A DNA stretch of 64,000 bases from Eledone cirrhosa (taxonomy: Eukaryota): the NCBI GenBank assembly GCA_964016885.1, contig OZ024742.1:260276001-260340000 (forward strand), read 5' to 3'. Below the pieces are notes generated by a model. The model made no database searches, was not told where the DNA came from, and saw only the letters and a list, made by a program, of their open reading frames with translations. The position numbers and the translations under genes were made by a program. Of the stretch, positions 30,801 through 64,000 are shown piece by piece. Within the stretch, counting starts at the first letter, position 1; each line of letters begins with the position of its first letter.

Positions 30801-33790
30801 CACAACTCACATTACACATACCATACACAACAGAACAAACACTAAAATAACACAACTCACATTACACATACCATACACAACAGAACAAACACTAAAACAA
30901 CACAACTCACATTACACATACCATACACAACAGAACAAACACTAAAATAACACAACTGACATTACACATACCATACACAACACAACTCACATTACACATA
31001 CCATACACAACAGAACAAACACTAAAATAACACAACTCACATTACACATACCATACACAACAGAACAAACACTAAAATAACACAACTCACCTTACACATA
31101 TCATACACAACAGAACAAACACTAAAATAACACAACTCACATTACACATATCATACACAACAGAACAAACACTAAAACAACACAACTCACATTACCCATA
31201 CCGTACACAACAGAACAAATACTAAAACAACACAACTCACATTACACATACCATACACAACAGAACAAACAATAAAACAACACAACTCACATTACCCATA
31301 CCGTACACAACAGAACAAATACTAAAACAACACAACTCACATTACACATACCATACACAACAGAACAAATACTAAAACAACACAACTCACATTACACATA
31401 CCATACACAACAGAACAAACACTAAAATAACACAACTCACATTACACATACCATACACAACAGAACAAACACTAAAATAACACAACTGACATTACACATA
31501 CCATACACAACACAACTCACATTACACATACCATACACAACAGAACAAACACTAAAATAACACAACTCACATTACACATACCATACACAGCCGAACAAAC
31601 ACTAAAACAACACAACTCACATTACACATACCATACACAACAGAACAAACACTAAAATAACACAACTCACATTACACATACCATACACAACAGAACAAAC
31701 ACTAAAACAACACAACTCACATTACACATACCATACACAACAGAACAAACACTAAAATAACACAACTGACATTACACATACCATACACAACACAACTCAC
31801 AGTACACATACCATACACAACAGAACAAATACTAAAACAACACAACTCACATTACACATACCATACACAACAGAACAAACACTAAAACAACACAACTCAC
31901 ATTACACATACCATACACAGCAGAACAAACACTAAAACAACACAACTGACATTACACATACCATACACAACAGAACAAACACTAAAATAACACAACTGAC
32001 ATTACACATACCATACACAACACAACTCACAGTACACATACCATACACAACAGAACAAATACTAAAACAACACAACTCACATTACACATACCATACACAA
32101 CAGAACAAACACTAAAATAACACAACTCACATTACACATACCATACACAACAGAGCAAACACTAAAACGACACAACTCACATTACACATACCATACACAG
32201 CAGAACAAACACTAAAACAACACAACTCACATTACACATATCATACACAACAGAACAAACACTAAAATAACACAACTCACATTACACATATCATACACAA
32301 CAGAACAAACACTAAAACAACACAACTCACATTACCCATACCGTACACAACAGAACAAATACTAAAACAACACAACTCACATTACACATACCATACACAA
32401 CAGAACAAACACTAAAACAACACAACTCACATTACACATACCATACACAACAGAACAAACACTAAAATAACACAAGTCACATTACACATACCATACACAG
32501 CAGAACAAACACTAAAACAACACAACTCACATTACACATACCATACACAACAGAACAAACACTAAAATAACACAAGTCACATTACACATACCATACACAA
32601 CAGAACAAACACTAAAATAACACAACTCACATTACACATACCATACACAACAGAACAAACACTAAAACAACACAACTCACATTACACATACCATACACAG
32701 CAGAACAAACACTAAAACAACACAACTGACATTACACATACCATACACAACAGAACAAACACTAAAACAACACAACTGACATTACACATATCATACACAA
32801 CAGAACAAACACTAAAATAACACAACTCACGTTACACATACCATACACAACAGAACAAACACTAAAACAACACAACTCACATTACCCATATCATACACAA
32901 CAGAACAAATACTAAAACAACACAACTGACATTACACATACCATACACAACAGAACAAACACTAAAACAACACAACTCACATTACCCATATCATACACAA
33001 CAGAACAAATACTAAAATAACACAACTCACATTGCACATATCATACACAACAGAACAAATACTAAAATAACACAACTCACATTGCACATATACACAACAG
33101 AACAAACACTAAAATAACACAACTCACATTGCACATATCATACACAACAGAACAAACACTAAAATAACACAACTCACATTGCACATATACACAACAGAAC
33201 AAATACTAAAACAACACAACTGACATTGCACATATCATACACAACAGAACAAATACTAAAATAACACAACTCACATTGCACATATCATACACAACAGAAC
33301 AAACACTAAAATAACACAACTCACATTGCACATATCATACACAACAGAACAAATACTAAAATAACACAACTCACATTGCACATATCATACACAACAGAAC
33401 AAATACTAAAATAACACAACTCACATTGCACATATACACAACAGAACAAACACTAAAATAACACAACTCACATTGCACATATCATACACAACAGAACAAA
33501 TACTAAAATAACACAACTCACATTGCACATATCATACACAACAGAACAAACACTAAAATAACACAACTCACATTGCACATATCATACACAACAGAACAAA
33601 TACTAAAATAACACAACTCACATTGCACATATCATACACAACAGAACAAACACTAAAATAACACAACTCACATTGCACATATCATACACAACAGAACAAA
33701 TACTAAAATAACACAACTCACATTGCACATATGATACACAACAGAACAAATACTAAAATAACACAACTCACATACCACATACAATAGAAC
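24861..33790. repeat. 50-bp tandem satellite, about 8.9 kb (roughly 180 units), with higher-order structure
   Basis: Unit aacagaacaaacactaaaataacacaactcacattacacataccatacac, highly homogeneous, with recurring variants and 30-bp truncated units. Confidence 0.98.
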
Positions 33791-42427: not shown

Positions 42428-42777
42428 GCATGGGTTAAGTAAATTGACAGAGTCAGTAGAACATGAGATAAAATACTTAGTGGTATTCATTGTGGCTCTC
42501 TGAATTCAAATCGAACTTGATGAAAACTGTACCAGTCCAGTACAGGGGTTGATTCTCACTCTGCCTCTTCTTCTCTGGAATAAATTCTTTAGACTTGGGC
42601 CAGGATGGGCTCCATCAGGTTTAAATTGCCCAAGATATATGTCATTGCAGCACCTCTGCAACTTGCAAACACAAGGAAAAGTACACAAAACCTAAGAGAA
42701 TATTATGAGATTACTCTCTGTTCCTACTCTGAGTTTCACAGTTTCACACAGATCATGTATATATTTTATTTTTGCAG

Positions 42778-43062
42778 GTCCCAGACCAAAGGCCCCTTTG
42801 AATGTAACTCTGAATGTACTGCGTGGGGCCATCAATGTTACTTGGTTTGCCCCCCAAAAATCCAACGTTTCTATTTTCTACTATGTTGTTGAATACTGTA
42901 ACGACACAATGTGGCATCGAGTTAAAGAGGTGGTTCTCACACCACAAACCTGGTACCTGATGGAGGATTTGAAACCGGGAACCTACAAATTCCGGGTGTT
43001 TTCCTTCAGTCTTCTATCATACAGTCAACCTCAGGAATCAGAAAAGGTTGTCGTACCTGAAG
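42778..43062 (+). CDS. Internal coding exon (285 nt, phase 1-1): one fibronectin type III domain of a Turtle/Borderless (IgSF9)-like protein
   Basis: Acceptor ttttatttttgcag|GT, donor GAAG|gtatgt. Translation GPRPKAPLNVT..INVTWFAP..YYVVEY..W..YLMEDLKPGTYKFRVFSFS has the FN3 hallmarks (P..P.N, W..P, Y.V.Y, L.PG.Y.FRV). Family assignment is from recalled similarity to the GPKPGPPRNLTV-type FN3 of Borderless, not from a search. Confidence 0.9.
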
Positions 43063-43103
43063 GTATGTAAACAAATCACACAAAACCACATTCTATATCT
43101 ATA

Positions 43104-43145
<42 letters not shown>

Positions 43146-43339
43146 TACATCTATACTTTTCTAGATCTATTTATTGTATTTTTTCATGTATAATATGAGA
43201 ACTTTTAAATTAAAATTAAGAGTAAAAATCCAGTTGTTTTACATTCTTTAACAGTACAAATTTACAAAATCATTTACATAGACATGGCTGTACTCTAGGG
43301 TAATATTATACACAAGAATGTAATTTATTTTTGTTTTTG

Positions 43340-43492
43340 TTTAGCTTTACAGGGACTGTATTATACTCAAGTCATATTATACACAAGGATGTTTAGTTTT
43401 ATAGGGATTGTATTTTATTCAAGTCATATTATACACAAGGATGTTTAGCTTTATTGGGATTGTATTATACTCAAGTCATATTATACACAAAG
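43340..43492. repeat. About 52-bp tandem repeat x3
   Basis: gtttagctttatagggattgtattatactcaagtcatattatacacaaggat repeated. Confidence 0.85.
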
Positions 43493-43959
43493 TGGTAGTT
43501 ACCTTTGTGTTTTTACCATCATACCTATATAAGGTGGCATACAGACAGAATCATTAGTGCCAGATAAAATACTTTGTCTTAGTGATAAGAGCATTATATT
43601 ACTAAATTGATTATGTTAGTTAATTAGTTAGGCCAGGCTCCAGCCTAGGTCGAGATAAAAAGTCCCTATTCTACACTTTTCTGTCCATTACACTTTTCCG
43701 TCCATCATTGCCATCTTCAGTTCCTGGATAGATTCCAGGCCAGTATCCTTCTTCAGGTTGTCAATGTCTGTTACATGACATCTCCCATGCTTTTTTATTC
43801 CAAGCCATGAAATCCTCACACATTATAACAAGAGAGATGTCTATTTAACTCCAGAAGATTTTCATCTAACTTCTTAATCCCCATCTGTCATGACGGTTAT
43901 TGCAACATCCTTTTTGGGGTGTGCAACCATGCAGTTGCTGTATTGGTGCTGCACAAATC

Positions 43960-44058
43960 AAAATGTTGTTGGTCAATAGCTTTAAAATGCTGTTGATCAA
44001 TAGCTTTAAAATGTTGTTGGTCAATAACTTTAAAATGTTGTTGGTCAGTAGCTTTAAA
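43960..44058. repeat. 24-bp tandem repeat x4
   Basis: aaaatgttgttggtcaatagcttt repeated. Confidence 0.9.
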
Positions 44059-44494
44059 TTTAAAATATATTTGCCCAAAGCGTCAAACATTCCAGTTGGT
44101 GGATGGGAATGATTACAACAATGTTGACCTATAGGTATATCATAGAAGTTTTAACCCTCACACTATGATAAAGAACCCCATGTATGTTTTATAAGTCATA
44201 TATAAATACTTGAAAATGATTCCATACCAACTAATGAGACTTCTACTTGTTATGTTTCATAAAAATTTATTTCAACACTTCAACATCTTTTCACAGACTT
44301 TTAAATTGTTGCTTTTCTATTTTTTACTCATTATCGATTTTATTGCATTTAGTACCAATAATTTCATTATCTATTTTATTGCTTTTAGTACAATAATTTC
44401 ATTATCAATTTTATTATATTTAGTACAATAATACCGTCTATGTATTTGTTTTGTAAGATTCTTGATGTGAAATCATGTGTTGAAACAGACATTG

Positions 44495-45445
44495 GAGGAG
44501 AGTCATGTTGCAATAAAAACACATGCACTACTTAACTTTCACTTTAGTTTTATTATTATTAGTTTGTTATCTCATGTAATTGTCAAAGCTCTTTCATCAT
44601 CCATTCTGTGACCTCATCATTGACTATCTGTGTTCCTCTTTGCCTCCTCTTCCTTCTGGTCTTATTTTGTCAACTCCATCTTCTCTTTCTGTCAAGCATT
44701 TCCCTGCCTGTGTATATGTTTGTGTCTGCACCAGTGTATATGTGTTTATGTCTTGTCTGCATGTCTATGGAGAGTGGGGAGGGGTTGCATTGGTTTGTAT
44801 TTCTATTTCTATAAATGTGTCCTCCTATGTTTTTTTTCTGTTTCCTATGTGTCCCATTGTGTCCAGTCATTTGGTTGAGGGGTAGAGGTGTACTATTCCA
44901 TTTGTGCTTTCTGTTGAGGCTCGGTTTACTCTCTAATGTGTAACCTCCTTAATTTGTCTGAGTGGTGTGTCAGTTCTATGTGTGAATAGGATCTTTACTA
45001 CTATGTTATCTGTTGGGCCCCCATGTTCTAATTTGGCATGTTGGTATAGGACTGATGAACTTTTCTCCTCTTTAAGTTCTCACCAGTGTCCCTTCATCCT
45101 CTCTGCTATGTGCTGTCTCTCATATAAATGTTGTTGTCTTGTTTCTGCACCGTCACTCTGTACACCTTATCCTATAGACTGCATTCATAATTTTTCAGTT
45201 TATCTGCGGGCTTATTTTACTATACAACTTCTATCAGTGCAGGGGGGTTCTTAAAAGAGTAGGTCCTACTGATCAAGGATTTAACGGGAGTTTCTGTCTT
45301 TTCTACCACTGGTAGTCATTGATGAGCTCGTAGAATGTGTGATGAGAGAGATTTGACAATTACATAATATAACAAACTAATAAGAATAAAAATGAAGTGA
45401 AAATCAACTAGTGCACATGTTTTTATTGGCAACATGACCCTCCCT
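44495..45445 (-). mobile_element. Degenerate Penelope-like element with inverted terminal repeats
   Basis: Minus about 45190-44890 translates (with stops and frameshifts) NAVYRIRCTE*..FI*ETAHS..ERMKGH..SVLYQHAKLEH..LRQIKE..KPSLNRK..W. 44495-44626 is an imperfect inverted copy of 45313-45445. Confidence 0.8.
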
Positions 45446-46482
45446 AAATATAACAATGCAATAATATCATTATCTATTTTATTGCAAATAGTACAATAAT
45501 ATTGTTCTTACATTTTAGTTGAAGGCTGGAATTTTATCATCAAAACATTATTTCTGAAGTTAAATTATGTACATTTTATTCTTTATTGCAGAATATTTTG
45601 TTAAATTAATTTTATATTTGAGTTATATATATATATATAAGAGTAAAAAAAAAAACAGTGGATGGGTGTGTGGATAGGAGAGAAAGCACACACACTCACA
45701 CACTCACACACACTTATATATATATGTATACATATATATATATATTTATGTGTGAGCTTTTTCTTTTATCTACCCTTTTCTCTCGTATTTTTTTTCACTC
45801 TCCTCTATCTTTCTTTTTCTTCTGCTTTTCTCTCTCCCTCTTCTAATGAAGTTCTAGCCCCCAAAACGTCAAGACTCTGTTCTAACTATATCAAGCATTA
45901 AACTAATATATCACCGTTACATTATATTGCTCTCCTGTGTTGATTTTCCATGTTGACTTTTGTTATTTATGAGTGTTTGTGTGTGTGTATTTGCACACGG
46001 ATACATATACATTTGTGTGTGTGTGTGATGATGATGATGATATATATATATATGTATATATATAGCCTTTGACCAATATTGGTCCTGGCTATATCTAACT
46101 TAATACCATCACTTAGATACTTATCCATATATGTGTGTATGTGTATATATATGTATATATATGTACATATAGACACACACATCCACATATATAATATATA
46201 TGTATGTACATATATTTAACTTCTTGTTTATACAGCTTTCTGGTTGTTTTTCTTAGAACGTAAGTATAACGCTGTTGTTAACATGACACAATGCTTGACT
46301 TATATAGTCAATCAGTATAATCACACACATAACAACCATACCTATATTTTGAATCACACCAAATATTTATTTGGCTTATCACATACCTAAAATTAATTAA
46401 TCAAGACTCATTATCACTTTTCACTTGATGACTTCAAAAAATATATTTACTGTATTTTTTTTTTTCCATATATTTTTGTATT

Positions 46483-47050
46483 TTGGAGTTGTTCATGTCT
46501 GGCAAGTGACTTGATCTGAGACTATGTTGAAACTAAAGCAATTACATAATGGAAGATTCACATTAGCCACAGTTGTATTTATCTGGCAACTAACTTGATA
46601 TAAATCCATATCTTAAAACTATCATGGAATATTTATTTTAGCCACATTTGTAGATGTCTGACAAGTGACATGATCTGAGACTGTTTTGAAACTAAAGCTA
46701 TTATATTGTGGAAGAGTCATTCTAGTTACAGTGATACTTGCCTGGCAAGTGACTTGATCTGAGACTGTAAGTTGAAACTAAAGCTGCTGTGGAAGAGTCA
46801 TTCCACAATACTACTGTTGTACATGTCTAACAAGTGACTTGATCTGTGACTATGAGTTACAATTAAAACAATTACAGTGTGTAAAAGTCACGTTAGTTAC
46901 AATTGTTCATGTGATTTCATCTGTGACTGTGTTGAAACTAAAGCTATTATATTGTGGAGGAGTCATTTTAACTATAGTTGTTCATGAGACATAATCTGAG
47001 AGTGTGAGTTGAAACTAAAACAATTAGTGTGGAAGAGTTGCATTGGCCAT
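46483..47050. repeat. About 80-85-bp diverged tandem repeat (6-7 copies)
   Basis: Recurring caagtgacttgatctgagact..gttgaaactaaagc.atta...gtggaagagtca at about 46501, 46660, 46744, 46830, 46910 and 46985; a solo copy at about 40955-41030. Confidence 0.85.
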
Positions 47051-47422
47051 CTAAAGACACCCAAGAACTGATAAATTCAATTTATATTAATCATTTATTT
47101 CTTGGTATCAAAATTTTCATCAAATTGACTGTGACCTAATTAATAGAACTGTTAGTGGAATTCTGTTAAGTGACCAAGTTACCGAGACTAATGAGGGAAA
47201 ACGCTGACACCAAGAAATAAATGAAAAAAAGGTTTTTGTGTTTTAAATGGCTAAAATGACTCTTCCACACAGTAGTTGTATATATTTTATTTTTATATAT
47301 TCATTTTTTCATGCTTCACAGATGTATTCACTTAAATGTAGCTTTTAGCAGCCATGTGTTTATTGTTGCACTCACTGCACACACACACACACTACTCTCT
47401 CTCTCTCACACACATACACATA

Positions 47423-47456
<34 letters not shown>

Positions 47457-48396
47457 TGGTGGTACCTACAAATGATGCATTCAGCTGATTTGCCATATTT
47501 TCTATTTCAATTTAAGCAATTATTTAATTTTCAGTATTCTTCTCACCACAGCTGTCATATTGATATTCTTTCTGGGAATTTGGAAATTATACTTTGATTT
47601 TGCAAGAGACTGGATTGGTTAATGATTGAAAAAAACTTCTAGTATCAGTGTATATAGACTTGTGTCCTATATGTGTGTGTGTGTGTGGAAAGAAAGATAT
47701 GCTTCTATATATGTATAGCATATATATGTGTGTGTGTGTCATCATTATTAGCAGCATCAGGATTTAATGTCCACTTTCCCTGTTAGCAAGGATTGAACGA
47801 TTCCTGAAAGGACCAGGCTGGTACTAAATGTGAAGGTACTGACTCCACAGTGAGCTAGAAGCTTGCATCTAGCTTACATACATTGCTGAACCCTACTAAG
47901 TTCTCAGAAGACAGTCTGCAACATGCTTATAGTCCCGACCCTTTGTTTGACAGGTTTTCTATGGCTGGATGTCCTCCCCATCACTAACCACTATACAGAG
48001 TGTACTGAGTGTGTTTATCTTGTACTTCACCACCAACACTGGAGATGTTGTCATGTATGTATATATATATGTATATACATTATATACATGTGTGTGTGTT
48101 TGGATCTTTCAGGGGTTTCAATAAGTATTCATTGAAATATAGGGTGGACACTACATGACAATCTCTCTAGTATTAATGCAATGATAAAATACATCCAATA
48201 GACTCTATAAAGTGGTAGTGCCAGTGCCATGATAAAATGCACTCAGTACACTCTGTAAAGTAAGTGATATGATCAAGACGTTGTTCTCTAACCAGTCAGT
48301 TTAGAACTGGAACAATCTTTCCAGCCCATACCAGTATGGGAAATGGATATAAAATGAGGATGATGATGATATTATGTATACAAGCACACACACACA

Positions 48397-48448
<52 letters not shown>

Positions 48449-51400
48449 GAGAGACAGATGGGGGGAGATCCACACCCATGCAGATAATTATAGGTTATCT
48501 CTTGATTCTTTTTTTTTTTTCACAAATTCTATAAAATAATGACTTATGTGTGAGAAACAAGATTTATTTTCAATTTAGCCTGAAAAAATGTAAATTGAAT
48601 TTATTGTTATTACGACCATTACTTATACTAGCAGAAAACCCTTCGGTGGTTTTCTGCTAGCATGTGTAGTGTGTATATTGATATTATACGCAAGTATATA
48701 TATACATGTTGATATGATACATCAAATAAAATCCTAATTGACAATATACACAAATTGAATGAAGACGTTGTTACACTGTCTTATGTAATCAGTAACGTAA
48801 TCCATGATACATTAAAAAAAGACGATATTATATATAAATTGCATTAGGAGAATATTAGTATGTTTATTTAAGTGATCGCCACCGGAAGTGTTGACATCAC
48901 ACACTCTCTCTTTCTATATATATGGTAGTTGAAGTGGTGGTGGTGGCAATGATATACTGGAAGTGCAACTTTGAAAAGAAGTCAATTTTAAATTATTTAT
49001 TTTTACGAAATTTAGTAGATAAATTATGTAATATTCATTCATTATTTTATTCAAAGTAATCCAACTTATTTTACTAACGGGATAAAAAAAAAAACCATAC
49101 ACAGTCCCGCAGACCTTCCTTTATTATAATTTAGATTATTAATGTTATTTTTATTATTATTATCATTATTAATGTTTTTATTATATTTGCTTCTCTGTAG
49201 ATGTTTCAGTGAATGTTATCATTGTTGGCAGTGTTTTTCTATTTGACAGATATATAACTGCAGTACCGCTCTCAGTGTATTGGCGTTTTTATACATTTAT
49301 TTTATTATCTTGTCCAATTCCTCCTTATATGCTTTATTTCAGCAAAGAACCTTCCAATGTTCTGTAGTTTCTCCTCCTCAAAACTTAAACTTGAGACACA
49401 AAGCATGCCAAAAACAAACCCCCACATTATTTCTGTATGTACAATGTTTTGGGATAATTTTCACATATAATTTCTCTATCATTTTATTATTAAATATATA
49501 TTTCTAATTAGTATTTATGCTATATTTTGTAATTTTATGACATAATCTGTGTTGTTATTGCTGTTCTTTGACATATATTCTATTTTATTTTATTTTTTTA
49601 CTTGTTTCAATCATCCAACTATGGCCATGTTGGGGCAGTGCAATCATTTTATTGACCCCGGTCTTTATTTACATTTTGTTTTGTTTTTTAAGTTGAGTAC
49701 TTATTTTATCAATCTCTCCTTTTTTTTTGCTAACCACTAAATTACTGAACATAAACACAGCCACAAACGTAAACATAGACATGGACACATACACACATAT
49801 AAACACATTTGCTTGTACATGTGCATGCGCATATACGTACGATGGGCTTCTGCAGTTCCCATCTACCAAATTACACTTATAAAACATTGACCAACTCAAG
49901 GCTATAGTAGAAGACACATGACCAAGGTCCCACACATTGAGACTGAAGCCAGAATCACATGGTTGGACAGCAACTCATTAACCACACCACCATGCTTGCA
50001 TTTCTGCTTTTATTTTATGAAATTATTGCTGTTGTTGATCTTAACAGCTTTTATTTCTCATCATATCTGATTGATAACATTAATAACATTGAGAATGTCT
50101 TGTAGATTTTTCAGCTAGAATTTATTACACTATATCATACACTACCTGTGAATTCATAGGATGGTGGCTGATTGTTAGAACATCAGATAATTGGCAGAGT
50201 CATCAGAACACCAGATAATTGGCAGGGATGTTAGAATGTCTGTTAATTAACAGAGTTGTTAGAATGTCTGTTAATTGGCAGAGTTGTTAGAATCTTTGAT
50301 AAAAAAAACTTTGTGGTATTTTTTCTGGTTATCAGTGCTCTGAGTTCAAATCCTTTCAAGGTCAACAAATAAAGTACTAGTTCAGTACTTTCTCATTTTC
50401 TTTCTCTCACTCTTCTCATTCTCTGGAAGAAATTTGCTATGTTCAGACATGGGAGTAGATGTGCTCCACCAAATTTAAGATGCCATATATCACTATGGTA
50501 CCCCTACAACTCTTTCAGAAGTTAAGGTTCCATGTATGCATGCATACCTGTGAAATTATGAATAAACATGAAGGATTCTCCATTGATTTTGATGATCAGC
50601 ATTCTAATTATGCTATGATCATTACTAATCTGTCTCTTATGGGCAGGAGCAAAAACTACAACCATCTCCAAACTGCTTGCTTTGACTGGAATAAAGCAGC
50701 CTAGAATTCTTACTACACGTTCAAACTGGCTTGAATTTTACAACTCCGGAGATGTAAATACTATACTTCAGAACATCCTGAATTCTATATGGACAGCATG
50801 TGCAGCACCAGTACCATGTAAGCACAAAAAACATTCCATAGTGCAAATTAGGAGAGTTGTTAGGGCATCAGATTAAGTACTTTGGTATTTGTTCTGGCTC
50901 ACTACACTCTGAATTCAAATCCAGCCATGGTCAACTTTTCCATTTATCCTTTCAAGGTCAATGAATAAGATATCAGTCCAATACTGGGGTTGATTCTTCC
51001 TCTATCTTTCTTTTTCTCTCACACTCTCTTCTCTGGAAGAAAACTGCTATGTTCAGACGTAGAGAGGGGTGGGCTCTGTCACGTTTAAATGCCACAACGG
51101 TGCCCCTAAGGTTCTACCAAAGTTAAGAGCTGTTTCTCTTCTCTCTATATTAGGTAGATGATAGATTGCCAGATTCATTAGAGTATCAGATTTAAATGTC
51201 TCGATATTTATGATAAGAAGGGCATAAAAACCATGCATAAAATACAACAGATATATGTGAGATGTCCCTTTGTCTCCTGCCTGTCTAGGAGGACAGTAAC
51301 ACCAATTAAGTACTTACATGGTCTTTAAACACCTGTCCAACCCATCCTAACATGGAAACAGACATTAGATGATGATGATGGTGATGATGATTTTATTGCT

Positions 51401-51934
51401 AACAAATAATCTGTTGTTTGTTTTTGTTTTACTCTTTTAAAATGTTTTTCCTTGCAGTTTTTTTTGCTCTTATTTTATTTTAACATAAATTTTTTTTCTC
51501 TTAAAGATGATTATCTCTTGTACTTCTTTATATTTTACCATACAATATCTGTCAGCTAGCACTATGTGATATATCATCATAACATATACCTATATACGGT
51601 CAGAATATTTCTTAACCCTTTCATTAGCATATTTCTAATTAAAGACACTATCTATGATTTTTCAAATCATTTTGAAAATATCAAGTTTTTGCTAGCATTT
51701 AGTAATGTAACCAACTATTTCATGCATTTGATGATTTCATACAAATAAAATGGTTAAAATCATGAAGAAGTTATTTCTATTTGAAATAAATCATATACCT
51801 TCTTTACATAATGTGTTGGGTGTGGTCCCTTTCTGTTTCACTTCAGTAAACCATCCATATTCATATATTTGTGCTAGCAGGGAAAACGGTCATGAAATGA
51901 TGATATATATATATATATATCATCAGTATATATA

Positions 51935-52135
51935 TAGGAAAATGTTCGAACCCCGATGGCAGAACTCAAGCCGTTTCACCGGTTATTTCAGTCCAGAAAT
52001 AGCCGTCGAAACAGCTTGAGCTCTGCCGCCGGGGTCTTGAACATTTTCCTATTATCCACTCTACTACCCAAAGTATTGAGTACTCTGGTGCATTATGGTC
52101 CACCTGGTTTCTTACCACACTTCCCTCGTTATATA
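51935..52135 (+). mobile_element. Non-coding fold-back element family (hairpin head plus conserved about 80-bp tail); other copies at 16535-16725 (+) and 10606-10720 (-)
   Basis: Shared tail ccactctactaccc.aagtattgagtactctggtgc.ttatggtcca.ctggtt.cttaccaca; hairpin of about 110 bp with gtttc/gtcgaaacagc near its apex; all copies abut (TA)n. Confidence 0.75.
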
Positions 52136-52454
52136 TATATATATATATATATATCATCATCATCATCATTTTACGTCCACTTTTCCCTGCTTGCAAGGGT
52201 GGGACGGGAACTGATTCTGGCTTGATTTCTACAGCTGGATGCCCTTCCTAACACCAACCTCATTTACAGTGAGTGTTGGGTGCTTTTTTCCATGGCGCCT
52301 ACTCGTCCACTTTATAGTGTGGGCTGGGTGAATTTTTGCCATGGCACCTCCACGACCACTTTGCAGTGGAATGATAGGGACCCCAGTCCCTATCATCTCA
52401 TTTCTACAGCTGAGTAAACAGGAGCAATGTGAAATAAAGTATCTTGCTCAAGGA

Positions 52455-52485
<31 letters not shown>

Positions 52486-52555
52486 AAATAAAGTAGGTGC
52501 CCCAGTATGGCCTCAGCCGGATGGCTGGAGCAGGTAAAAGAGTAATATATACTGA

Positions 52556-52598
<43 letters not shown>

Positions 52599-53931
52599 CA
52601 TCATTAATTACCGTTTTTCTCTGCTAGCACATTTATATGATTATGAATGGTTTTCTGGTTTAGAAGAGATACACTGTGACACTGCATGTCATAAGAAGCA
52701 AGTAAAGGGATTGATCTCAGGAAGGGCATCCGGCTGTAAACCATTGCCTCAAAAGTTTTGTCCAGCCCATGCCAAACTAGAAGTGTCAACATAAAAATTA
52801 TGAGATGACAACAATGTTATTTAATATGTGCTCGTATATCTCACTGGCCAACATAGTTATATGTATATATATGTGTGTGTGTGTATATATATATATATGA
52901 ATAAAAAATATGGGTGAAGACAAGAAAATGTACAAATACAGTCGATCCCATCTCATCAGTCGACTGTTAAAAATATGTTGTTTCAGTGCTTGAAGATCGA
53001 TATATATATATAACTGTTTTGTTATCATATGACAAAAGAGTTAATTTATGTGACACTAATTAATACAATTCTATTTTTTCATTGTTTTGGTTTTTGCTTT
53101 CAGAAGATTTCTGCTCCTCAACTTTCTAAAATAGAAAGAAATTAATTTATTCATAAAAAGCCAACACACCACAAGTTAACTATAAAATGATAGAATAAGT
53201 CAGGTAGATAACACTTGGAGATGGAAAAAAAAATAGACCACCTGCAAGAATCAACCCACACGTGTGTCATATGCTGGATGGCTGTGATACCAATACAATG
53301 TATGTGTGTGTATTTACATATGTATGAGATGTATATATGTTTACATATATGTTATCAAAGGGTTTATTTACCCAATTTATCCAACTATTTTTATAGTTAA
53401 CAAGCAGTGTGGTGGCTTTTCAAAAAGCAAGCATACTTTCAAATTTACCTGATGCTTTGTAAATAAATCAAGGTTGCTTAACTCTTTTGATGCTAAACCA
53501 CATGAAACTGCCCATGATTTTATGGTGCAGGACTACTTGTTATATAGTGTTTATATTTCATATCTTTATTTTGGAACTTTGTTAAGTTATGTTCCAAACA
53601 CCAGTTTAATAATGAGGATGTCAGTTATATTACTAAATCTATTCAAATTGTTGAATTTTCAAAACAATTTGAAAATAATAGGTTACTGCTACTGCTACTA
53701 CTACTACTACTACTACTGTCTTTCCTTTTATTGTCTTTTTAATGCATTTTTATCTACAGCACCTGTATTCTATTCTTCCTCCTACAGACAAACACAGACA
53801 TGTATGTCTCTATTTGTATGTGTGTGTATGTGTATATATATATATGTGTGTGTGTAGATTTTTCATTTCAGTAATTGAACCTACATTATTACTTCGTTTC
53901 TAATCTATACTTGTACTGATTTCTTCTTCTG

Positions 53932-54007
<76 letters not shown>

Positions 54008-54332
54008 TCATTATCATCCTCATCATCCATCAATATCATCAATGCTGTTTCTGTATTTGTTGTTGTTGTTGTTGTCATTCATTGCAGTTATTTCTTCACA
54101 AGATTCTGTTCTATTGTATACATTTTATTTCATCTCTCTTCGATATGTTTTAGTTGTTAGTTATGGAGAGTTATACCCGAAAATGTGCTATGTTCTTATC
54201 CAGTGAACAGTTGTAGGTGCCATTGAGCATACATAACAGGAAATTCCATTATATTGTAGCTGCATAGTACAGGGGCTTCTAACCCCAACTCACTAATATC
54301 AATTCTCTTTAGTGTATCTATGTCCGTGTGAG

Positions 54333-54426
<94 letters not shown>

Positions 54427-54444
54427 GTATATATATGTATATAC

Positions 54445-54527
<83 letters not shown>

Positions 54528-54834
54528 GCATCATGATCTTCTGTATGTGAGTGTATGTATATGTATGTATCTAAGTATATAAACGCAAACATATATATTT
54601 ATATGTTTGCGTGTGTATATATACATTCATAGACATATATATTTACATATGTAAATATATATGTATATGTGTGTGTGTGTGTGTGCGTGCATGTATATAT
54701 ATATATACATATATAAATTATGTATTAAGAGTATATTTGCTAGCATGTCTGTATATTTATATATACATGTAGAAATATATTTCTATGCATGTCTATATAT
54801 GTAGGTGTGTGTATGTATATAGATATACATGTTC

Positions 54835-54923
<89 letters not shown>

Positions 54924-55516
54924 ATGGAGAAACACACTTACATACAATCATACATACATACAAACTTATATAAACACGTGCAGATATTCACTCTTACTGT
55001 AAATATTCTTTTGTTCTTGTATTTTTTCCTAATTACTTTCACCAAATATACCCTTATTGGCTAGCCCTGTGTATATTTCTCTCTCTTCTACAACTTTTAA
55101 AGTAACATTGATTTTTTTTCCCTATTTTTCTATATTTATTTATAATCGTCACAAGCGCCCTCTCTGGCCCCGTTAAATGTTTTCCAACTAACATTTCTTC
55201 TATAAGATGATCATCAGAAATAGTTGAACGTTTTGCTAAAGTTCTTCATGTTTTTGTTTTGTTATCCTTGAAATATCTGATGAACCCAAGAATTAATTAA
55301 TAATTAATTTGCTTGTCACATGGGATGCCAAATAGGAAGTTAACAAAAGTACAAACACCAAATATCAGAGGAACATTTTGGTAGCATTTTAGTCAATAAA
55401 TCATAAAGACAGGTATTTCAGTTTGATATAGTATAATATAGTTGAGAGAGCACTCAATTCATGGAAAGTCTAAAGCATATAGACATTTATTACACAAAGT
55501 ATTATTATTGTTACTA

Positions 55517-55741
55517 GAGCGGTGGATTGGCAGTATCGGTAGAGAGTCAGACACCATGCTTTGCAGCATAGAGTTACAGTCCTTTACGGTCTGAGTTCAA
55601 ATCCCGCCGAGGTTAACTTTACCTTTCATCCTCATGGGGTCGATAAAATAAAGTACCAGTCATGCACTGGGGTCGATTTAATCGACTTTCCCCTCCTCCA
55701 AAATTGCTGGCCTTGTGCCTATATAAGAAACCATTATTATT
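55517..55741 (+). mobile_element. Full-length tRNA-derived SINE with Meta-like central domain and (TTA)n tail (most abundant family in the window)
   Basis: A-box TGGCAGTATCGG, B-box GTTCAAATCC, core cctttcatcctcatggggtcgataaaataaagtaccag, tail gctggccttgtgcc..attattatt. Further copies near 316-470(-), 1843-2066(+), 13315-13520(+), 24185-24385(-), 41264-41455(+), 41900-42085(-), 42230-42345(-) and 50850-51000(+). Confidence 0.9.
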
Positions 55742-55865
55742 AGCCGTATTTTTATTGTGCATCATCACCAAGTGCAGCTCCCTGCAGTATGGTTTTTGGT
55801 GGTGTTGTTTCTATTGTATTGAGAGTACTCTTCATAATATGTGTGCAGTACCTGGTGAGGCTATA
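55742..55865 (-). mobile_element. Short R4/Dong-like LINE 3' end relic
   Basis: Minus strand reads GTAHIL*RVLSIQ*, the same terminal motif type as GTARIIRKV at about 20760-20790. Confidence 0.55.
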
Positions 55866-56368
55866 TATATATAGTGAACTCAATTGTTGATTGAGTCTGT
55901 ACAATCATTTTTGACCTGAAACCAGATTCCTTAATCTTTGAGTTCATATAAGATTTTCTCTGCTTTTTATACAAAATTCTTCATATTTGTATAACTATTT
56001 CTTCCCATACATACATATATATAAAGTTCTATCAAATGGATGATGCATATTGATTATGGTTGTGGGCTGATGGTTTTAAGGTCATGAGTTCTATTCTTAG
56101 ACTCAGTTATGTAGTGTGTCCTTCAGCAAGACACATTATTTCATGTTGCTCCAGCAAACTGAATTGGAATAAATGAATTGCAAGAACACTGGTTCTAAGC
56201 CATGTCAGCGTTTCCCTTTCCCTTGGACAACATCAATAACGTGGAGAGGGGACTGGCATGTATGGCTAACTGCTGGTCTTCTACAAAATATCCTGATGAT
56301 GGCTTTTGCCTCAGTAAACGATTGGTACAAAATCCATTGTCAATCGTGACTGAAGAGGCCCTTTCCTA

Positions 56369-56710
56369 TCATCATCATCATCATCATCATCATCATTTTA
56401 CGTCCGCTTTTCCCTGCTTGCAAGGGTGGGACAGGAACTGATTCTGGCTTAATTTCTACAGCTGGATGCCCTTCCTAACACCAACCTCATTTACAGTGCT
56501 GGGTGATTTTTTTCCGTGGCGCCTACACGACCACTTTACAGTGGAATGATAGGGACCCCAGTCCTATCATCTCATTTCTACAGCTTAGTAAACTGGAGCA
56601 ATGTGAAATAAAGTGTCTTGCTCAAGGAAATAACACATCACCCGGTAGAGAATTGAACTCACTACCTTTTGATTGCAAGACCAATTCTCATACCACTAAG
56701 CCATGTGCCT

Positions 56711-56712
<2 letters not shown>
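56369..56712 (-). mobile_element. Young tRNA-head SINE with RTE-derived 3' tail; sister copy at 52154-52460
   Basis: Near-identical to 52154-52460; the tail matches the RTE 3' end at 7062-7113. Confidence 0.85.
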
Positions 56713-56774
<62 letters not shown>

Positions 56775-57124
56775 GTGTGTTAGATTATATAATTACAAAT
56801 GGTTTTGAACCATACTGAGAGTGAAAGATGTGTCATGTGAATAAACCTTTGTAAACTGTAAATTCACTTTCCAAATTCTGGTACATATACTCTGTGAATC
56901 CTCTCAATACCAAGTAGATGTTACTGTACACTCCTACAGATGTTACTACAACACATATATATATAGCTGGTTCATATTGACAGTTATCTTCCTCACTTTG
57001 TTTTTCTAACTATACACTTCAAAGTATACATCCATTCAAGTTTTTGGAGAATTGTTCCATGGGATGACATCATATAAGAATGACACCCATGTGCTTATTG
57101 AGCAATACCAGTTATAAATTGTAG

Positions 57125-57425
57125 TGGCACGCCATCAATTACAACAATGAGTATTCCTGTTGATGCAATCAACGGAATAGCCTGCTCGTGAAATTAAAGT
57201 GCAAGTGTCTGAGCATTCCACAAACATGTGTACCTTTAACGTAGTTCTCAGGGAGATTCAGCGTGACACAGAATGTGATAAGGCTAGCCTTTTGAATTAC
57301 AGATACAACTCATTTTTGCCACCTGAGTGGACTGGAGCAGCATAAAATAAAGTGTCTTGCTAAATGATACAGCGCACTGCTGGGATTCAAACTCACAACC
57401 TTACAATCATGAGCCATGCCCCTTC
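57125..57425 (-). mobile_element. tRNA-head SINE of a third family; related fragments at about 2410-2520, 2775-3000 and 37110-37300
   Basis: Core gcctgctcgtgaaattaa.gtgcaagtg.ctgagcattccaca..gtagttctcagggagattcagcgtgacacag, followed by tgagtggactggagca..aaataaagtgtcttgc and a B-box complement. Confidence 0.75.
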
Positions 57426-58233
57426 AACCTTGGCCTTGATATGTATGAATTTACTGTTGAACAGGCGTATACAACAATGAAAGTTTTAAAGTAAAAAGGG
57501 ATTAATTAGGGTTAGAAACAAGGAAAAAAATTACACAATGTAAAAATGAGAAGGTTAAGGGAAGAGCAGACTGTACACCCCTTGCTAGAAACTATATACC
57601 TCCAGTGGTTATTGAGCAAGGCATCCCATAGTAGATGCAGCATGGTCATGTGATTAAGATCACTTCGCAATTATTTGGTTCCAACGAATATCATTTACTA
57701 TAGCCTCTGGTCAATCCAAACCTTGTGAGTGGAATTGGGTAGACGGAAATTGTTTAGAAGCCTAAATTCAAAGGGCCAGCCTTGTCGCACACTGTGTCAC
57801 TGAATCCCCTTGAGAATCATGCTATGGGTGTATGTGTGTGGAATGCCTCTCAGTTAAATGTTTTGAGTCCATATGTCTGATGAGCAGATTAATGCTGATG
57901 CCAGCTCTATCACATTGAAGAGGATCTTGAGCCAATGATCAATGAAATATTTATAATGGTCAATATACAATAAAAACAATTTAACCTTAGGGACGCTGAA
58001 TTTTTTTTATGAATTGCTTCCCTTGATACTGCATTATGTATTAAGGGGAAATTACTCTATCAGTGACTTAATGTGCCTGGAGCCTCCAGAAGGTTAAAGT
58101 AAAACTTCATTACATCATACTTTATATATTCACTCTATTATAACATTGAATGCTCACACTGGTGCCATTTAGAGTAATCAACAACATTACTGAAAACCTT
58201 ACATATATATATATATATATGCATGCATGTATG

Positions 58234-58277
<44 letters not shown>

Positions 58278-58283
58278 TGCATG

Positions 58284-58353
<70 letters not shown>

Positions 58354-58602
58354 GGCCAAATTAGGAAGTGAGAAAACACTTCAGAGGTTTCAAGGACATC
58401 TCTAGTGTTGATATCACAATAAAATGCACCCAGTACACTCTGTAAAGTGATCAACATTAGGATCATATAACCTCCAGCTAGTCTATGAAAGCAGTGACTC
58501 TGATCAGGTCTTGTTTTAGACCTCATATCTTATCTCTGATAACAGGGAAAACCTGGTAAAATTATGCATGATATTGACAGATATAGACAGACAGATAGAT
58601 AG

Positions 58603-58633
<31 letters not shown>

Positions 58634-59389
58634 CATGATGGCTACCCCCTCGTTATCGAGTATGGCCATTGCACGATATACCATTATTAATAATTATTAA
58701 TTAATTCTACCGTGCAATGCCTGTGCGTGAAGATATTTTTTAAAGTGAGGACAGACTATGCACTGAGCCAATCCCACTCGCTGAGCGACAGTAGCTATAA
58801 CCCGAAAAGAAGAAAAGAACAACATCATCGGTAACTACTGAGCCGCAGGTTTTATATCGGAGTTATCCCAGTTTCCTGAGTTGCCTTCTCCTACATACAT
58901 ACATACATACATGCATATATACATACATGTATATATACATACATGCATATATACATACATAATGAGATAGATAGACAAACAGTTAGATAGAAAGATAGAT
59001 AAATAGTTATGGGTTCACATTTGTGGAAATTACAATTACTCAGTGGAGAAATTAAACTAGTCATGTAATAGTTATATTTCAATAAAATAAAGTTGCCTCT
59101 CTGGTTAGTGTGTTGAGTATCTTACTGTCTCTGGTTCCATTGCATTTATATACTCTTATACATACATACAAAGTATATATATGTATATATACATACATAC
59201 ATATACATACATGCACATATATATACATGCATAATATAATTTCTATGTGTGTCTATATATATATATATATATATTCTGAGTATATGTTGGTTGTTTACCA
59301 ACACCTCAGTATGCAGATTGGAGCACTCAACGAAGTACGCAGGTCGGTTTGGTTACTCCGGAGTAATGTAAAATAAAGTAATTAAGTCA

Positions 59390-59754
59390 AATATTTAAAA
59401 TTTGGCTTCGTTTATTAAAGATGTACTGCTATATATATTTTGATGACAGTCATCATTGGCTGTGACCTCTTCAGGCAGTCCGAATTGGTGTGGTAGAGAC
59501 AGGTACACATGTTGTTAAAGTGTTTTACTCCATCAATACTCCGATATGTCCAGCTCCTGGTTGGGTTGTTATTTCTCTGAGGAACAGGAGCTGGACATAT
59601 CGGAGTATTGACGGAGTAAAACACTTTAACAACATGTGTACCTGTCTCTACCACACCAATTCGGACTGCCTGAAGAGGTCACAGCCAATGATGACTGTCA
59701 CCGAAATATATATAGCAGTACATCTTTAATAAACGAAGCCAAATTTTAAATATT
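59390..59754. repeat. Near-perfect palindrome: 170-bp arms, 25-nt loop, 3 mismatches, no indels; probably PLE-derived fold-back
   Basis: 59390-59559 is the reverse complement of 59585-59754 except at 59441/59703, 59443/59701 and 59532/59612. Confidence 0.97.
59665..59719 (+). ncRNA. Minimal type I hammerhead ribozyme motif with intact core
   Basis: Stem I ACUGC/GCAGU; core CUGAAGA (59670-59676); stem II GGUcACAG/CUGUcACC; GAAA (59703-59706); palindromic stem III UAUAUAUA with predicted AUA cleavage after 59714; AATAAA just downstream. Confidence 0.85.
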
Positions 59755-59984
59755 ATACTTATACCACTACCTAAGCTTTATTGTTAGATTCATAGCAAGC
59801 TTCAGGTTGACTTTAGATCAGATGGTCCTCTGGTCAATAGGGTGAGAAAATATTGTTTGTTACGTAACTGTGGACTGCCCAGCCACTTCCTGTTAGCTTC
59901 CCACATGTGTTATATCTCATCCTCCATCTATGATAGAATATTTCATCTTTACATGAACTCATGTACATATGTATATATTATTTG

Positions 59985-60046
<62 letters not shown>

Positions 60047-60224
60047 ATATATATGTTTGTGTATTTGAGGTCATGTATGCATGTATGTGTGTGTATATGT
60101 ATGTAAATACACACACACATGTAAATATGTGCATGTGAGTGTATGTATGTATATATATGTGTGTGTGTACGTGTATGTATACACATGGGTATATATGTGC
60201 ATATATATATATATATATATACAC

Positions 60225-60259
<35 letters not shown>

Positions 60260-60305
60260 CATTTATATGTATATGTATATATATACACATACATTTATAT
60301 GTATA

Positions 60306-60358
<53 letters not shown>

Positions 60359-60834
60359 GTATATACACATATTTTATATATATATATATAGACACATACA
60401 TTCTCTTAAACACATTTTCTTTATGGTAGCTAAAAGGATGTGACTTTTATAATCACCATACAAAAACAGATCAGAAAACAAGTTTTTAAAAAAAAAAAAA
60501 CTCTGTTGTACGGTAAGACAACAAAATGTATAATAATTATTATTTGTTAATGATAATTATAAAATCTGGTGTCACTGTTGATAAACTCTTGAAGGGCAGC
60601 ATCCTGTTAGCCATATTTGGCATCCCATGCAGTCTCGTTGGTATATATATAATAAATTTACTGGTATTTTTGACATGGTCCTATTTACTTACTAGCTGGC
60701 AGCCTCTGCCACTAGTTTCTATACTCACCACCGCTCAATCCATTATTTCTCCACCCCCAGGGATAGCGGTTTCTACTACTGCCACTAGTATCCCTGACAC
60801 TAAGAGTGAGTAAATATAAATCATATGCTCTCAG

Positions 60835-61145
<311 letters not shown>

Positions 61146-61659
61146 TATTTTCTTCCTCTAATTTTCCTCCCATTCTCTCTATCCTTCCCTCGCTCTTATT
61201 TTCTCTCATCATCCTCAGTACCCACCCCCCTTTTTTTTTACAGATTCTTTCTTTCTTTCTCTCTCTTTTTCTCCTCTATTAGTTTTCTATCTATTTTTAC
61301 TTCCGTCTCTCTGTCTTCTTTCTCCCCTCTCTCCCACCTCTCTCTATCCCTCTCTTTTCCCCACTTTCTCACACTTAGTTTATATGTGTAATTCTTAAAT
61401 TTGTTTCATTGTTTTTGTTATTGTGTTTGTCCTGTGGTTTGCATTTTTGTTTCGTTATATATATATATATACATATAATGGTAGAACACTGGGTGGTTAT
61501 ATCCACAGTAGTAAAGCACTCAGTCCACGGGACGAGTTCTGTTGAAGTTAGTTCCACAACAGTTAATTAATCATTTCCGTGGACATGTGTTTCACCTTCC
61601 TTCCACAAGGTGAAACATGTGTCCTCAAAAATGGTTTATTAACTGTTATGGAACTAACT

Positions 61660-61690
<31 letters not shown>

Positions 61691-62107
61691 GTGTGTGTAT
61701 GTATGTATGTATGTATGTATGTATGTATAATGAAACAAAATTGTTATCAATCTTGTATTTATGTGTTGTTTTGATAATTAAATTGTTTCATTACTGATAT
61801 ATTAATTTCTCCTTCGTTTTTCTCCTTCCTTTTTCTCCTTCCTTTTTCTTTGGCGTTATGTTTCACCCCACATTCATTTTTACATTTCTTTAGAAATCAT
61901 TTTGTCAGAATACCAACTAAAAAGTAAAATACTGAAAAGAAGAATCTATTTTAATGTGGTTAAGATAGTTTTAAGAAAGTGAGTAAAATAAGAAAAACAA
62001 AACAAAACAAAATGACGCTTTGCATTTTTATCTTATATTTCATGAGAATTCAATATTATCACACCTCTTTCAACATATATGTATAGATAGATAGATAGGT
62101 AGATAGA

Positions 62108-62161
<54 letters not shown>

Positions 62162-62209
62162 TATCAGCATCATCACTTTTACATCCGTTCTTCCATGCTT
62201 TCATGGGTT

Positions 62210-62259
<50 letters not shown>

Positions 62260-62352
62260 GGTAAAAGCACTCAATTCATAGGACGAGTTAAGTATAATTA
62301 GTCATTGTTTTAACTAAATATATATATATATATAATAAAAGCATTGTATATA

Positions 62353-63285
62353 ATATATAACGTTGAAAGAGATTGAAGGCTAAACAATGCAAAATGGACT
62401 GTAAGATGAGGTAACGAAAAGTAAAAGTTACCTGGTAATCTTTGATTTGTTTTGTTGTTGTCCTTGTTCTTTTATCTGTCCAATATTTCGGGACCTAAAA
62501 GTCCCTTCATCGGGGTTTAAGGAACCTTAAGAGGATAACGTTCCAATTTCCTCTCTTTGGGATAAAATTTTGATTTTGATTTAAATTTCTATCACTGGCT
62601 TTAATGGTAATAATTTCTACATTTGTCAATGTGTTTTTTGAATGTTGATGCACGTCTGTTGAGGTATTCTTTAATGCGAGCATGGAGTGTTCGAGTCATG
62701 CTACCAATGTAGAACTCCTTACATTTGTTGCATTCAATCCGGTATACCACATGTGTCCGCTGGCACATACCTTTATCGCGGATAGGGCAGTTAGTCAGCA
62801 AGCATTGATTGTTGTTGGCAACTTAGGAATTAAGGAAGCTTTGCTCATACGTCGACTCAACCCATAAATAAATAATAGATTAGAACTCAGCACACAGTAC
62901 TTGACATAAAAAGACACACCCACAGGCACACAAACTAAACATCTCATCCAAAAAAGAAAATTGATTTTGCGAAATACTATATTGACAATTGACATCATTC
63001 ATGTGGAAAGCGAAGTAACCATCAAAAAACTCTTGAAAACGACTTAGAAAAAATTTAAATCAAAATCGAAATTTTATCCCAAAGAGAGGAAATTGGAACA
63101 TTATCCACTGAAGGTTCCTGAAACCCTGATGAAGGGATGACTTTTAGATCCTGAAATGTTGGACAGATAAAATAACAAGAACAAAACAAAACAAAGATTA
63201 CCAAGTAATTTTTACTTTTCGTTACCTCATCTTACAGTCCATCTTGCATTGTTTTGCCTTCTATCTCTTTCAATGTTATATATAT
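62353..63285. mobile_element. Penelope-like element (GIY-YIG) with inverted terminal copies of its 3' region
   Basis: Minus 62601-62801 encodes C..C..VVYRIECNKCKEFYIGSMTRTLHARIKEY (GIY-YIG). Plus 62800-62905 encodes NLGIKEALLIRRLNP*INNRLEL (endonuclease C-terminus). 62355-62590 and 63048-63283 are reverse complements. Flanked by (TA)n. Confidence 0.9.
63124..63162 (+). ncRNA. Minimal hammerhead-like motif in the PLE 3' region
   Basis: ccCTGATGAagggatgacttttagatcctGAAAtgttgg. The inverted copy at 62480-62515 (-) reads ccCCGATGAagggacttttaggtcccGAAAtattgg, with a perfect stem II but a U4C core change. Confidence 0.65.
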
Positions 63286-64000
63286 ATATGAAGCTTGCGA
63301 TATATATGATTGTTTGGGGAAAGTCGATACATTGCAAATTGGAAATGCATGAGTGAAAACTAAAGTGGATTAAAGTAAGAACAACTAAACAAAAAATAAT
63401 TTAAACTTTTACTTTACATTTCCTGATATATTGAGGCTAGGACCTCTTTTTCAAAAGAAAAGAATCAGAGTATGTTGTCGGGAGCTGTCCTCTGCTGTAG
63501 TGGAATTATTTATTTAGTAGCCACTTCAAGATAACTGTAAAAGTTGTTTCCCTGTTTTATATTTAGCAGTTTAATTATGAAATCAGCTTCTATGGTTTTC
63601 AGTTACTTACCTAAGTGTTTTAAATGGGATTATAACTGAAATTTTGCAATGTCAGTTGGCATAATTGGCATACTATCTCTTGTATGTTTAGGTTGACATA
63701 TATGTTGACATATAGTCACTGTTGACAGTGTCAGTTGACATACAATCTGATATGTTTCAACTGACATAAACGACTTGTTCATTTAAAGTTATCTATCAAT
63801 ATGCTCATTTCTTCCACACTAATCAAAAAGCAAGGAAGATTTGTACATGGTTGTATTAAATCTTGACAATTATATTTGACCAAGCTATGTGACATTAATA
63901 TTTAATACTATGTTAAACCTTTGATAACAACCTTGCTGAAACTGTTGTGGTTTAATTATGTAAAACTGACCATACTTATATTAAAACCTGCCATCATAAT

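Follow-up and report, generated by a model that had tools for sequence, protein, structure and literature searches.

The palindrome described here lies in a 64-kb window of the Eledone cirrhosa genome (the window being the whole stretch of DNA that was analysed, 64,000 nucleotides). It is in all probability a dead, doubly 5'-truncated Penelope-like insertion, in which two hammerhead-bearing terminal repeats (pLTRs) stand head-to-head at a (TA)n site within an intron, and the G12A substitution found in one of the two hammerheads likely arose later by CpG deamination. Hammerhead pairs on opposite strands and 5' pLTRs in inverted orientation have been published before, and the locus is an ordinary one.

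Two truncated terminal repeats make up the palindrome

The original prediction described 170-bp arms with three mismatches, and this is borne out by comparison of the arms. They occupy 59390-59559 and 59585-59754 (170 bp each), with a 25-nt spacer between them, and mismatch at exactly three position pairs, 59441/59703, 59443/59701 and 59532/59612; two extra mismatches are incurred if they are stretched to 59383/59761. The insertion itself extends outside the 59390-59754 interval first described and reaches about 59275 on the left, where it ends in a tail. Its parts are as follows.

59254..59274, no strand: (TA)n run bordering the insertion on its left, the probable target site, from sequence
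59275..59370, minus strand: 3' extension of about 100 bp (the tail), matching the extension in family copies; boundaries approximate
59371..59584, minus strand: left copy, a 5'-truncated pLTR that includes the spacer
59585..59754, plus strand: right copy, an inverted 5'-truncated pLTR without tail

The left copy matches the pLTR that closes the RT and GIY-YIG element of locus L127 at 98.1% identity over 213 bases. The spacer (59560-59584) is also element sequence, being identical to the family's upstream sequence in the family copies compared. The right copy stops about 20 bases before the family's usual end, and at this palindrome the tail is confined to the left arm and the TA run to the left end. 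Both arms share A59694, a position at which most family copies have G, and 87-aa reading frames run across each arm.

The parent is a Penelope-like element with Hydra-clade motifs

The parent was sought in 12 stretches fetched around long copies, and all copies seen were broken. On one strand of locus L127 an RT region (with DKT, DIAGYY and LYRDD) is followed by a CxCX5C linker, a GIY-YIG region and then the pLTR, with about 4.1 kb from the RT region to the pLTR end, simple repeats included; L123 has the end of the RT, the endonuclease and the pLTR, plus an inverted pLTR at its 5' end. The motif had been described as a minimal hammerhead of the Penelope type, and the colinear RT, GIY-YIG and pLTR of L127 support that description. 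DKT stands in place of DKG (HADKTNN in L121 and L127), L121 carries MRWRAF (RWR, a conservative change from RWK), the linker of the parent copies reads CNCRNPESC or CNCRNPALC, and CxxC and CxH are found around a conserved E and N (CKLCLSE...N...CRH), CCHH being absent by eye. A Pfam search of the parent gave GIY-YIG at E=0.0023, below the cut-off, and no RT family match, the RT being recognised by its motifs.

Judged by motif description, the parent family is a Penelope-like element (PLE) with Hydra-clade motifs. As set out in PMC8557442, the Hydra clade comprises C-terminal EN+ PLEs, from Mollusca too, with RW[K/R], DKT, a CxCX5C linker and a hammerhead, and its members insert into (TA)n. The present family shares RW[K/R], DKT, CxCX5C, CxxC/CxH around E and N, the hammerhead and (TA)n insertion; unlike the clade as reported there it has RWR rather than RWK, and it may be longer, its parent spanning over 4 kb with simple repeats inside where less than 3 kb is given.

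Two of the fetched loci show how this family and its relatives are arranged. L121 (C1:40902900-40912000) is a nested 8-kb cluster of the family with several inversions, an RT, two endonuclease fragments and tails at its internal junctions. L124 (C6:56039300-56049200) holds fragments of a related yet distinct element (RT with IQFDINNYYS and LYRDD, DKT, CxCX5C linker, YIG), and these Penelope families are diverse in this genome.

Head-to-head pairs are the default layout of a large family

Used as a genome query, the right arm returned 1,745 candidates, of which the best of 40 scored were 97-98% identical. Exact matches to a 22-nt pattern comprising stem II, GAAA and helix III were then counted genome-wide, giving 9,174 G12-intact and 198 G12A arms. 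The samples are drawn from the first listed contigs, the first 100 intact matches lying on contig C1 between 1.8 and 53 Mb. Forty of these 100 arms form 20 head-to-head pairs less than 1 kb apart with both arms intact, and the other pairs within that distance are two tail-to-tail and two direct. Extrapolated from this one region, about 1,800 family palindromes with both arms intact would be present genome-wide.

Among 120 loci examined there are 35 distinct head-to-head fold-backs, including the one described here. Their junctions differ (18 overlapping, 2 blunt and 15 with inserted bases), 34 of the 35 (the present locus and 33 of the 34 others) carry the tail on one arm only, and in 30 both outer ends are flanked by TA runs. 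Arms diverge by a median of 3.2% within a locus against 11.1% between loci, and the closest arm is the arm's own partner in just 14 of the 35. Across 22 loci the tail arm shows no bias in damage, with 56 derived changes against 72 in the other arm.

Variation within the family was also apparent. U occupies position 11.1 in 5,385 of the 9,174 G12-intact matches (59%), where a G·U closing pair replaces the conserved G10.1-C11.1; since paired arms usually both carry it, it looks like a successful source-lineage variant. At least three further minimal hammerhead families were seen near fetched copies (loci L007, L012, L028, L041, L054, L058, L059, L063, L065 and L070), their stem I sequences differing yet complementary, their helix III mostly a palindromic 6-nt one and their cut site UA throughout. 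Among the listed papers on octopus Penelope hammerheads we saw none that describes the family; the supplements of PMC8557442 may list it.

A model for the origin of the insertion

According to the model that we favour, the endonuclease of the element would cut both strands of AT-rich DNA, and reverse transcription would be primed from each DNA end at one of two neighbouring start sites, the template being a single RNA or two sibling RNAs; one start site would yield the tail and the other none. Both cDNAs would end early and would be joined at their 5'-truncated ends, often via microhomology. Two primings followed by cDNA joining would account for the outward 3' ends, the TA on both sides, the one-armed tail and the variable junctions. 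Purified PLE protein is reported to cut and extend both strands of AT-rich DNA, and two neighbouring start sites of reverse transcription are reported to define the tail (PMC11167929). Fold-back copying of a single cDNA explains less well the usual common stop of the short arm. Snap-back at a long microhomology was also considered for the junction but not adopted, the exact overlap being about 1 base (the BLAST overlap of 5 includes mismatches).

Among EN+ PLEs, insertion units have been described in which a 5'-truncated copy stands inverted and only one end bears a tail (PMC8557442; Craig et al., 2021). The present locus shares with them the head-to-head inverted 5'-truncated copy, the tail at one end, the pLTR hammerhead and the microsatellite target, and differs from those described in its tail of about 100 bp, against 30-40 bp, and in that both halves are cut down to pLTR stumps. 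A non-LTR retrozyme was rejected as the source: it requires head-to-tail tandem units, whereas the layout here is head-to-head, with 2 same-strand pairs less than 1 kb apart among the first 100 arms.

The right arm carries a complete but weakened hammerhead

The two arms contain the following motifs.

59665..59719, plus strand: minimal type I hammerhead with intact core; cleavage predicted after A59714; A59694 weakens stem II
59425..59479, minus strand: left-copy hammerhead motif with G12A (59441) and a stem II C>U change (59443); antisense in the host transcript

The plus-strand motif consists of stem I (59665-69/59715-19), CUGAAGA (59670-76), a 26-nt stem II (59677-59702), GAAA (59703-06), UAUAUA, U16.1 (59713) and A17 (59714), and its helix III is palindromic: AUAUAUAU. 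The original prediction of a complete minimal type I hammerhead on this arm holds, since the core CUGANGA/GAAA/UH is present together with the helices expected of minimal hammerhead ribozymes (min-HHRs), namely a helix I of 4-5 bp, a long helix II closed by G10.1-C11.1 and a palindromic helix III. The descriptor search suggested at that stage found this motif as the sole strict match in the 64-kb window, and 100 shuffles of the window yielded 1 match in total. Rfam gave no hammerhead among 145 matches at E<=10 in the 55-64 kb part of the window, and nowhere in the 64-kb window did any match reach the gathering score; weak matches of miRNA models to the hairpin were discarded, lying far under their gathering scores. 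The left arm bears the mirror motif on the minus strand with G12A and the stem II change (C>U), as had also been described, and its core departs from that of min-HHRs through G12A. G12 is the general base of the hammerhead ribozyme.

A59694, present in both arms, forms a C·A mismatch in stem II, whose predicted energy is -6.3 kcal/mol here against -13.5 for the commonest family variant, and the 'intact' hammerhead of the right arm is therefore a weakened variant. Min-HHRs in opposite-strand pairs 100-700 bp apart have been reported (PMC4209133). The present motif resembles min-HHRs in being of type I with a 5-bp helix I, a long helix II and a palindromic helix III/loop 3, and in its thousands of dispersed copies and opposite-strand pairs at the same spacing. 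It is unlike those described in that the insert of its helix III consists of 6 nt, all A or U, and in that 59% of family matches have U11.1 and the right-arm copy has the helix II C·A mismatch. Between A9 and G10.1, where min-HHRs have an unpaired nucleotide, no extra nucleotide is clearly apparent, the best fold pairing G59677 with C59702 directly.

Predicted masking of the motif by the hairpin

With both arms together a single hairpin of about -310 kcal/mol is predicted, and the hammerhead stem probability falls to 0.0 at four decimals. The proposal that the hairpin sequesters the hammerhead is thus supported by the predicted fold, in which stem I has probability 0.0 when both arms are present. 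In that fold G12 pairs with U59441 as a wobble (probability 0.998), so that in the host transcript G12A merely turns a G-C pair into G·U. It had further been pointed out that the antisense arm is transcribed first; this is true, but it is nothing special, for it applies to any head-to-head pair on either strand, and masking therefore needs no special explanation.

The isolated 59-mer is predicted to form stems I and II, with a monomer helix III probability of 0.007, and the predicted intermolecular (dimer) helix III is worth -3.2 kcal/mol. If the left arm is removed, the natural upstream sequence drops the predicted stem I probability to 0.009. There is no second strict hammerhead motif in the 64-kb window and no family copy in the 16 kb of intron past it.

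The palindrome lies deep within an intron

The original prediction placed the palindrome, conditionally, in an intron of a plus-strand IgSF gene, and this was confirmed by flanking exons identified through protein homology and bounded by canonical splice sites.

42774..43062, plus strand: upstream host exon, second FN3 domain, with AG|GTATG donor; start approximate
43063..64000 and on past the window to C3:260356369, plus strand: host intron, 37.3 kb, by protein homology

The FN3 exon (about 42774-43062) matches octopod proteins with 5 Ig domains, 2 FN3 domains and a transmembrane segment, and is 86% identical to protein P0001; from this domain layout we take the host receptor to be Turtle/IgSF9-like. 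The downstream exon (GPDNDNDG..., locus L132) lies 16 kb past the window end and has a TTTTCAG acceptor. With both neighbouring exons and their splice sites placed, the palindrome falls near the middle of the 37.3-kb intron, the donor being about 16.5 kb and the acceptor about 20.8 kb away. Thirteen of 14 P0001 exon matches are on the plus strand, over about 557 kb of contig C3.

The gene for this Ig/FN3 receptor is at least 557 kb long (C3:259812803-260370617). Its transmembrane exon is preceded by a short acidic exon that one homologue, P0002, lacks and that is possibly alternatively spliced. Nine inverted repeats of at least 80 bp with arms within 3 kb occur in the 64-kb window, all within the host gene, so hairpins would be common in the host pre-mRNA. 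At 62328-63307 the host intron contains an older Penelope-like fold-back (arms 62328-62588 and 63051-63307, 87% alike) that encloses an inverted GIY-YIG fragment (Pfam E=0.0003, below the cut-off) and gave no match to the strict hammerhead descriptor. An 8.9-kb tandem array at 24869-33786 is built of about 180 copies of an AC-rich unit of about 50 bp, with 82-86% matches and extreme strand skew.

The G12 substitution follows CpG context

G12 is the G of the C11.1-G12 CpG. In the genome-wide pattern counts, A12 follows C in 168 of 3,957 arms (4.2%) and T in 30 of 5,415 (0.55%), making G12A 7.7-fold commoner in the CpG than in the TpG context (OR 8.0, p=7e-36). A CpG beyond the motif served as a control: the first 100 of its 459 matches include 2 G>A and 5 C>T changes. 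The mismatch at 59532 is also a CpG transition, so that two of the three arm differences are of this kind; the remaining one, the stem II C>U at 59443, lies outside CpG context.

The view that the G12 change is special is not upheld by these counts, since it is CpG-driven and is not enriched in fold-backs, in which 13 of 30 G12A arms and 16 of 30 intact arms lie (p=0.61). Among the fold-back loci, 22 were picked without regard to G12A, and in these the arms showed 0 differences at G12. Core arm mismatches in these 22 loci number 4/240 against 134/3,465 elsewhere, a contrast to be read with the way the loci were retrieved: one arm had to match the pattern or be similar, and core mismatches are under-represented as a result. 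The arm mismatch rate is 13.9% at CpG and 3.3% at non-CpG positions, a comparison inflated by the CpG definition and given no weight here. The chance that two of three mismatches land in the 55-nt motif is 0.25, and that at least one of three strikes one of 11 invariant positions 0.18.

Compared with other copies, all three arm differences are derived in the left (antisense) arm and none in the right. Three against zero is the direction expected of selection on the sense motif, but it is not significant (chance 0.25, two-sided). We consider it likely that G12A is a later CpG deamination without functional consequence.

Discussion

The reading that the locus is a dead, doubly truncated insertion has to be weighed against several others. 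At the level of the family, solo sense intronic copies might be mildly harmful and self-masking fold-backs over-retained in introns, the present locus being one survivor of such passive neutralisation. The head-to-head geometry masks the motif on either strand, as this would require, and tandem retrozymes are reported to be depleted from introns (bioRxiv 10.64898/2026.07.22.740005). Against it, single min-HHRs gave no cleavage in vitro and dimers low cleavage in the experiments of PMC4209133, while the anole PLE hammerhead, as reported in PMC11167929, required protein in order to cleave and was not needed for insertion in vitro, and RNA-seq showed no ends at its cut site. With cleavage reported as weak or protein-dependent there is little activity to select against, and we regard this history as improbable. 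The same holds for a wider version, in which head-to-head integration acts as a safety catch that masks the hammerhead on either strand, intronic fold-backs persist, solo sense copies are purged, and at least about 1,800 hairpins feed the dsRNA of octopus hyper-editing and perhaps unmask ribozymes in neural pre-mRNAs; this too we think improbable.

It is very unlikely that the locus represents a MITE-like or retrozyme-like unit, mobile in its own right, that spreads as a palindrome. Many of the palindromes are similar in size, and one arm often begins near a common point (the CATATG region), as would be expected of such a unit. However, the 35 junctions differ, the ends are asymmetric, the arms are anything from about 80 to over 700 bases long, RT/EN fragments lie between the arms of some pairs (L122, L123 and L126), and same-strand tandem pairs are rare, with 2 among the first 100 arms.

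A further alternative makes the fold-back a gate, kept or tuned to silence an active hammerhead in a neural pre-mRNA and to release it conditionally (for example through ADAR unwinding), with G12A disarming the antisense copy. The motif is indeed intronic and sense-oriented, the hairpin is predicted to mask it fully, the three derived changes are all antisense, and octopus hyper-editing is reported to be very high (PMC5625713). The gate is nonetheless not borne out, as about 40% of family arms sit in such palindromes and head-to-head is the family's default. G12A is explained by its CpG context and lacks fold-back enrichment, and the antisense arm is no ribozyme in the host transcript. The motif itself needs a same-strand partner, and none is present in the window or, as a family copy, in the 16 kb beyond; its helix III is predicted to be feeble both in the monomer and between molecules, stem II is weakened in both arms, and the palindrome is more than 16 kb from either splice site. 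We therefore hold regulation of this kind to be highly improbable. An assembly or chimeric-read artefact is just as hard to credit: no contig or read was seen across the locus (contigs of three runs and one RAD-seq run recruited other family copies at depth up to 1e5, the unique right flank having zero depth), which is uninformative for a high-copy repeat, whereas the arms differ at three sites with a mutation-like spectrum, are asymmetric in tail and spacer, and show a biologically specific layout that recurs at 34 other loci.

If the locus is a dead insertion, as we favour, the host pre-mRNA is likely to undergo no cleavage there, the motif being lost with the intron, and the hairpin may possibly be A-to-I edited incidentally. 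If transcribed, its near-perfect, short-looped form of about 170 bp would resemble the palindromic ADAR substrates described for frog Harbinger and lizard Penelope elements (Porath et al., 2017; PMC5625713), and it is alike in form to the Penelope inverted repeats described as siRNA sources (PMC3681739).

The single locus matters little, being one of thousands of stumps left by a young retroelement family. Were head-to-head integration to act as a safety catch after all, the hairpins of the family would make up a sizeable share of the dsRNA behind octopus hyper-editing. The family itself represents a large and recent expansion of Hydra-type Penelope elements, whose thousands of paired arms offer material for the study of two-site priming and of the joining of inverted copies, and it provides, through the intronic strand and fold-back bias of its copies, a natural test of minimal hammerhead activity in vivo.
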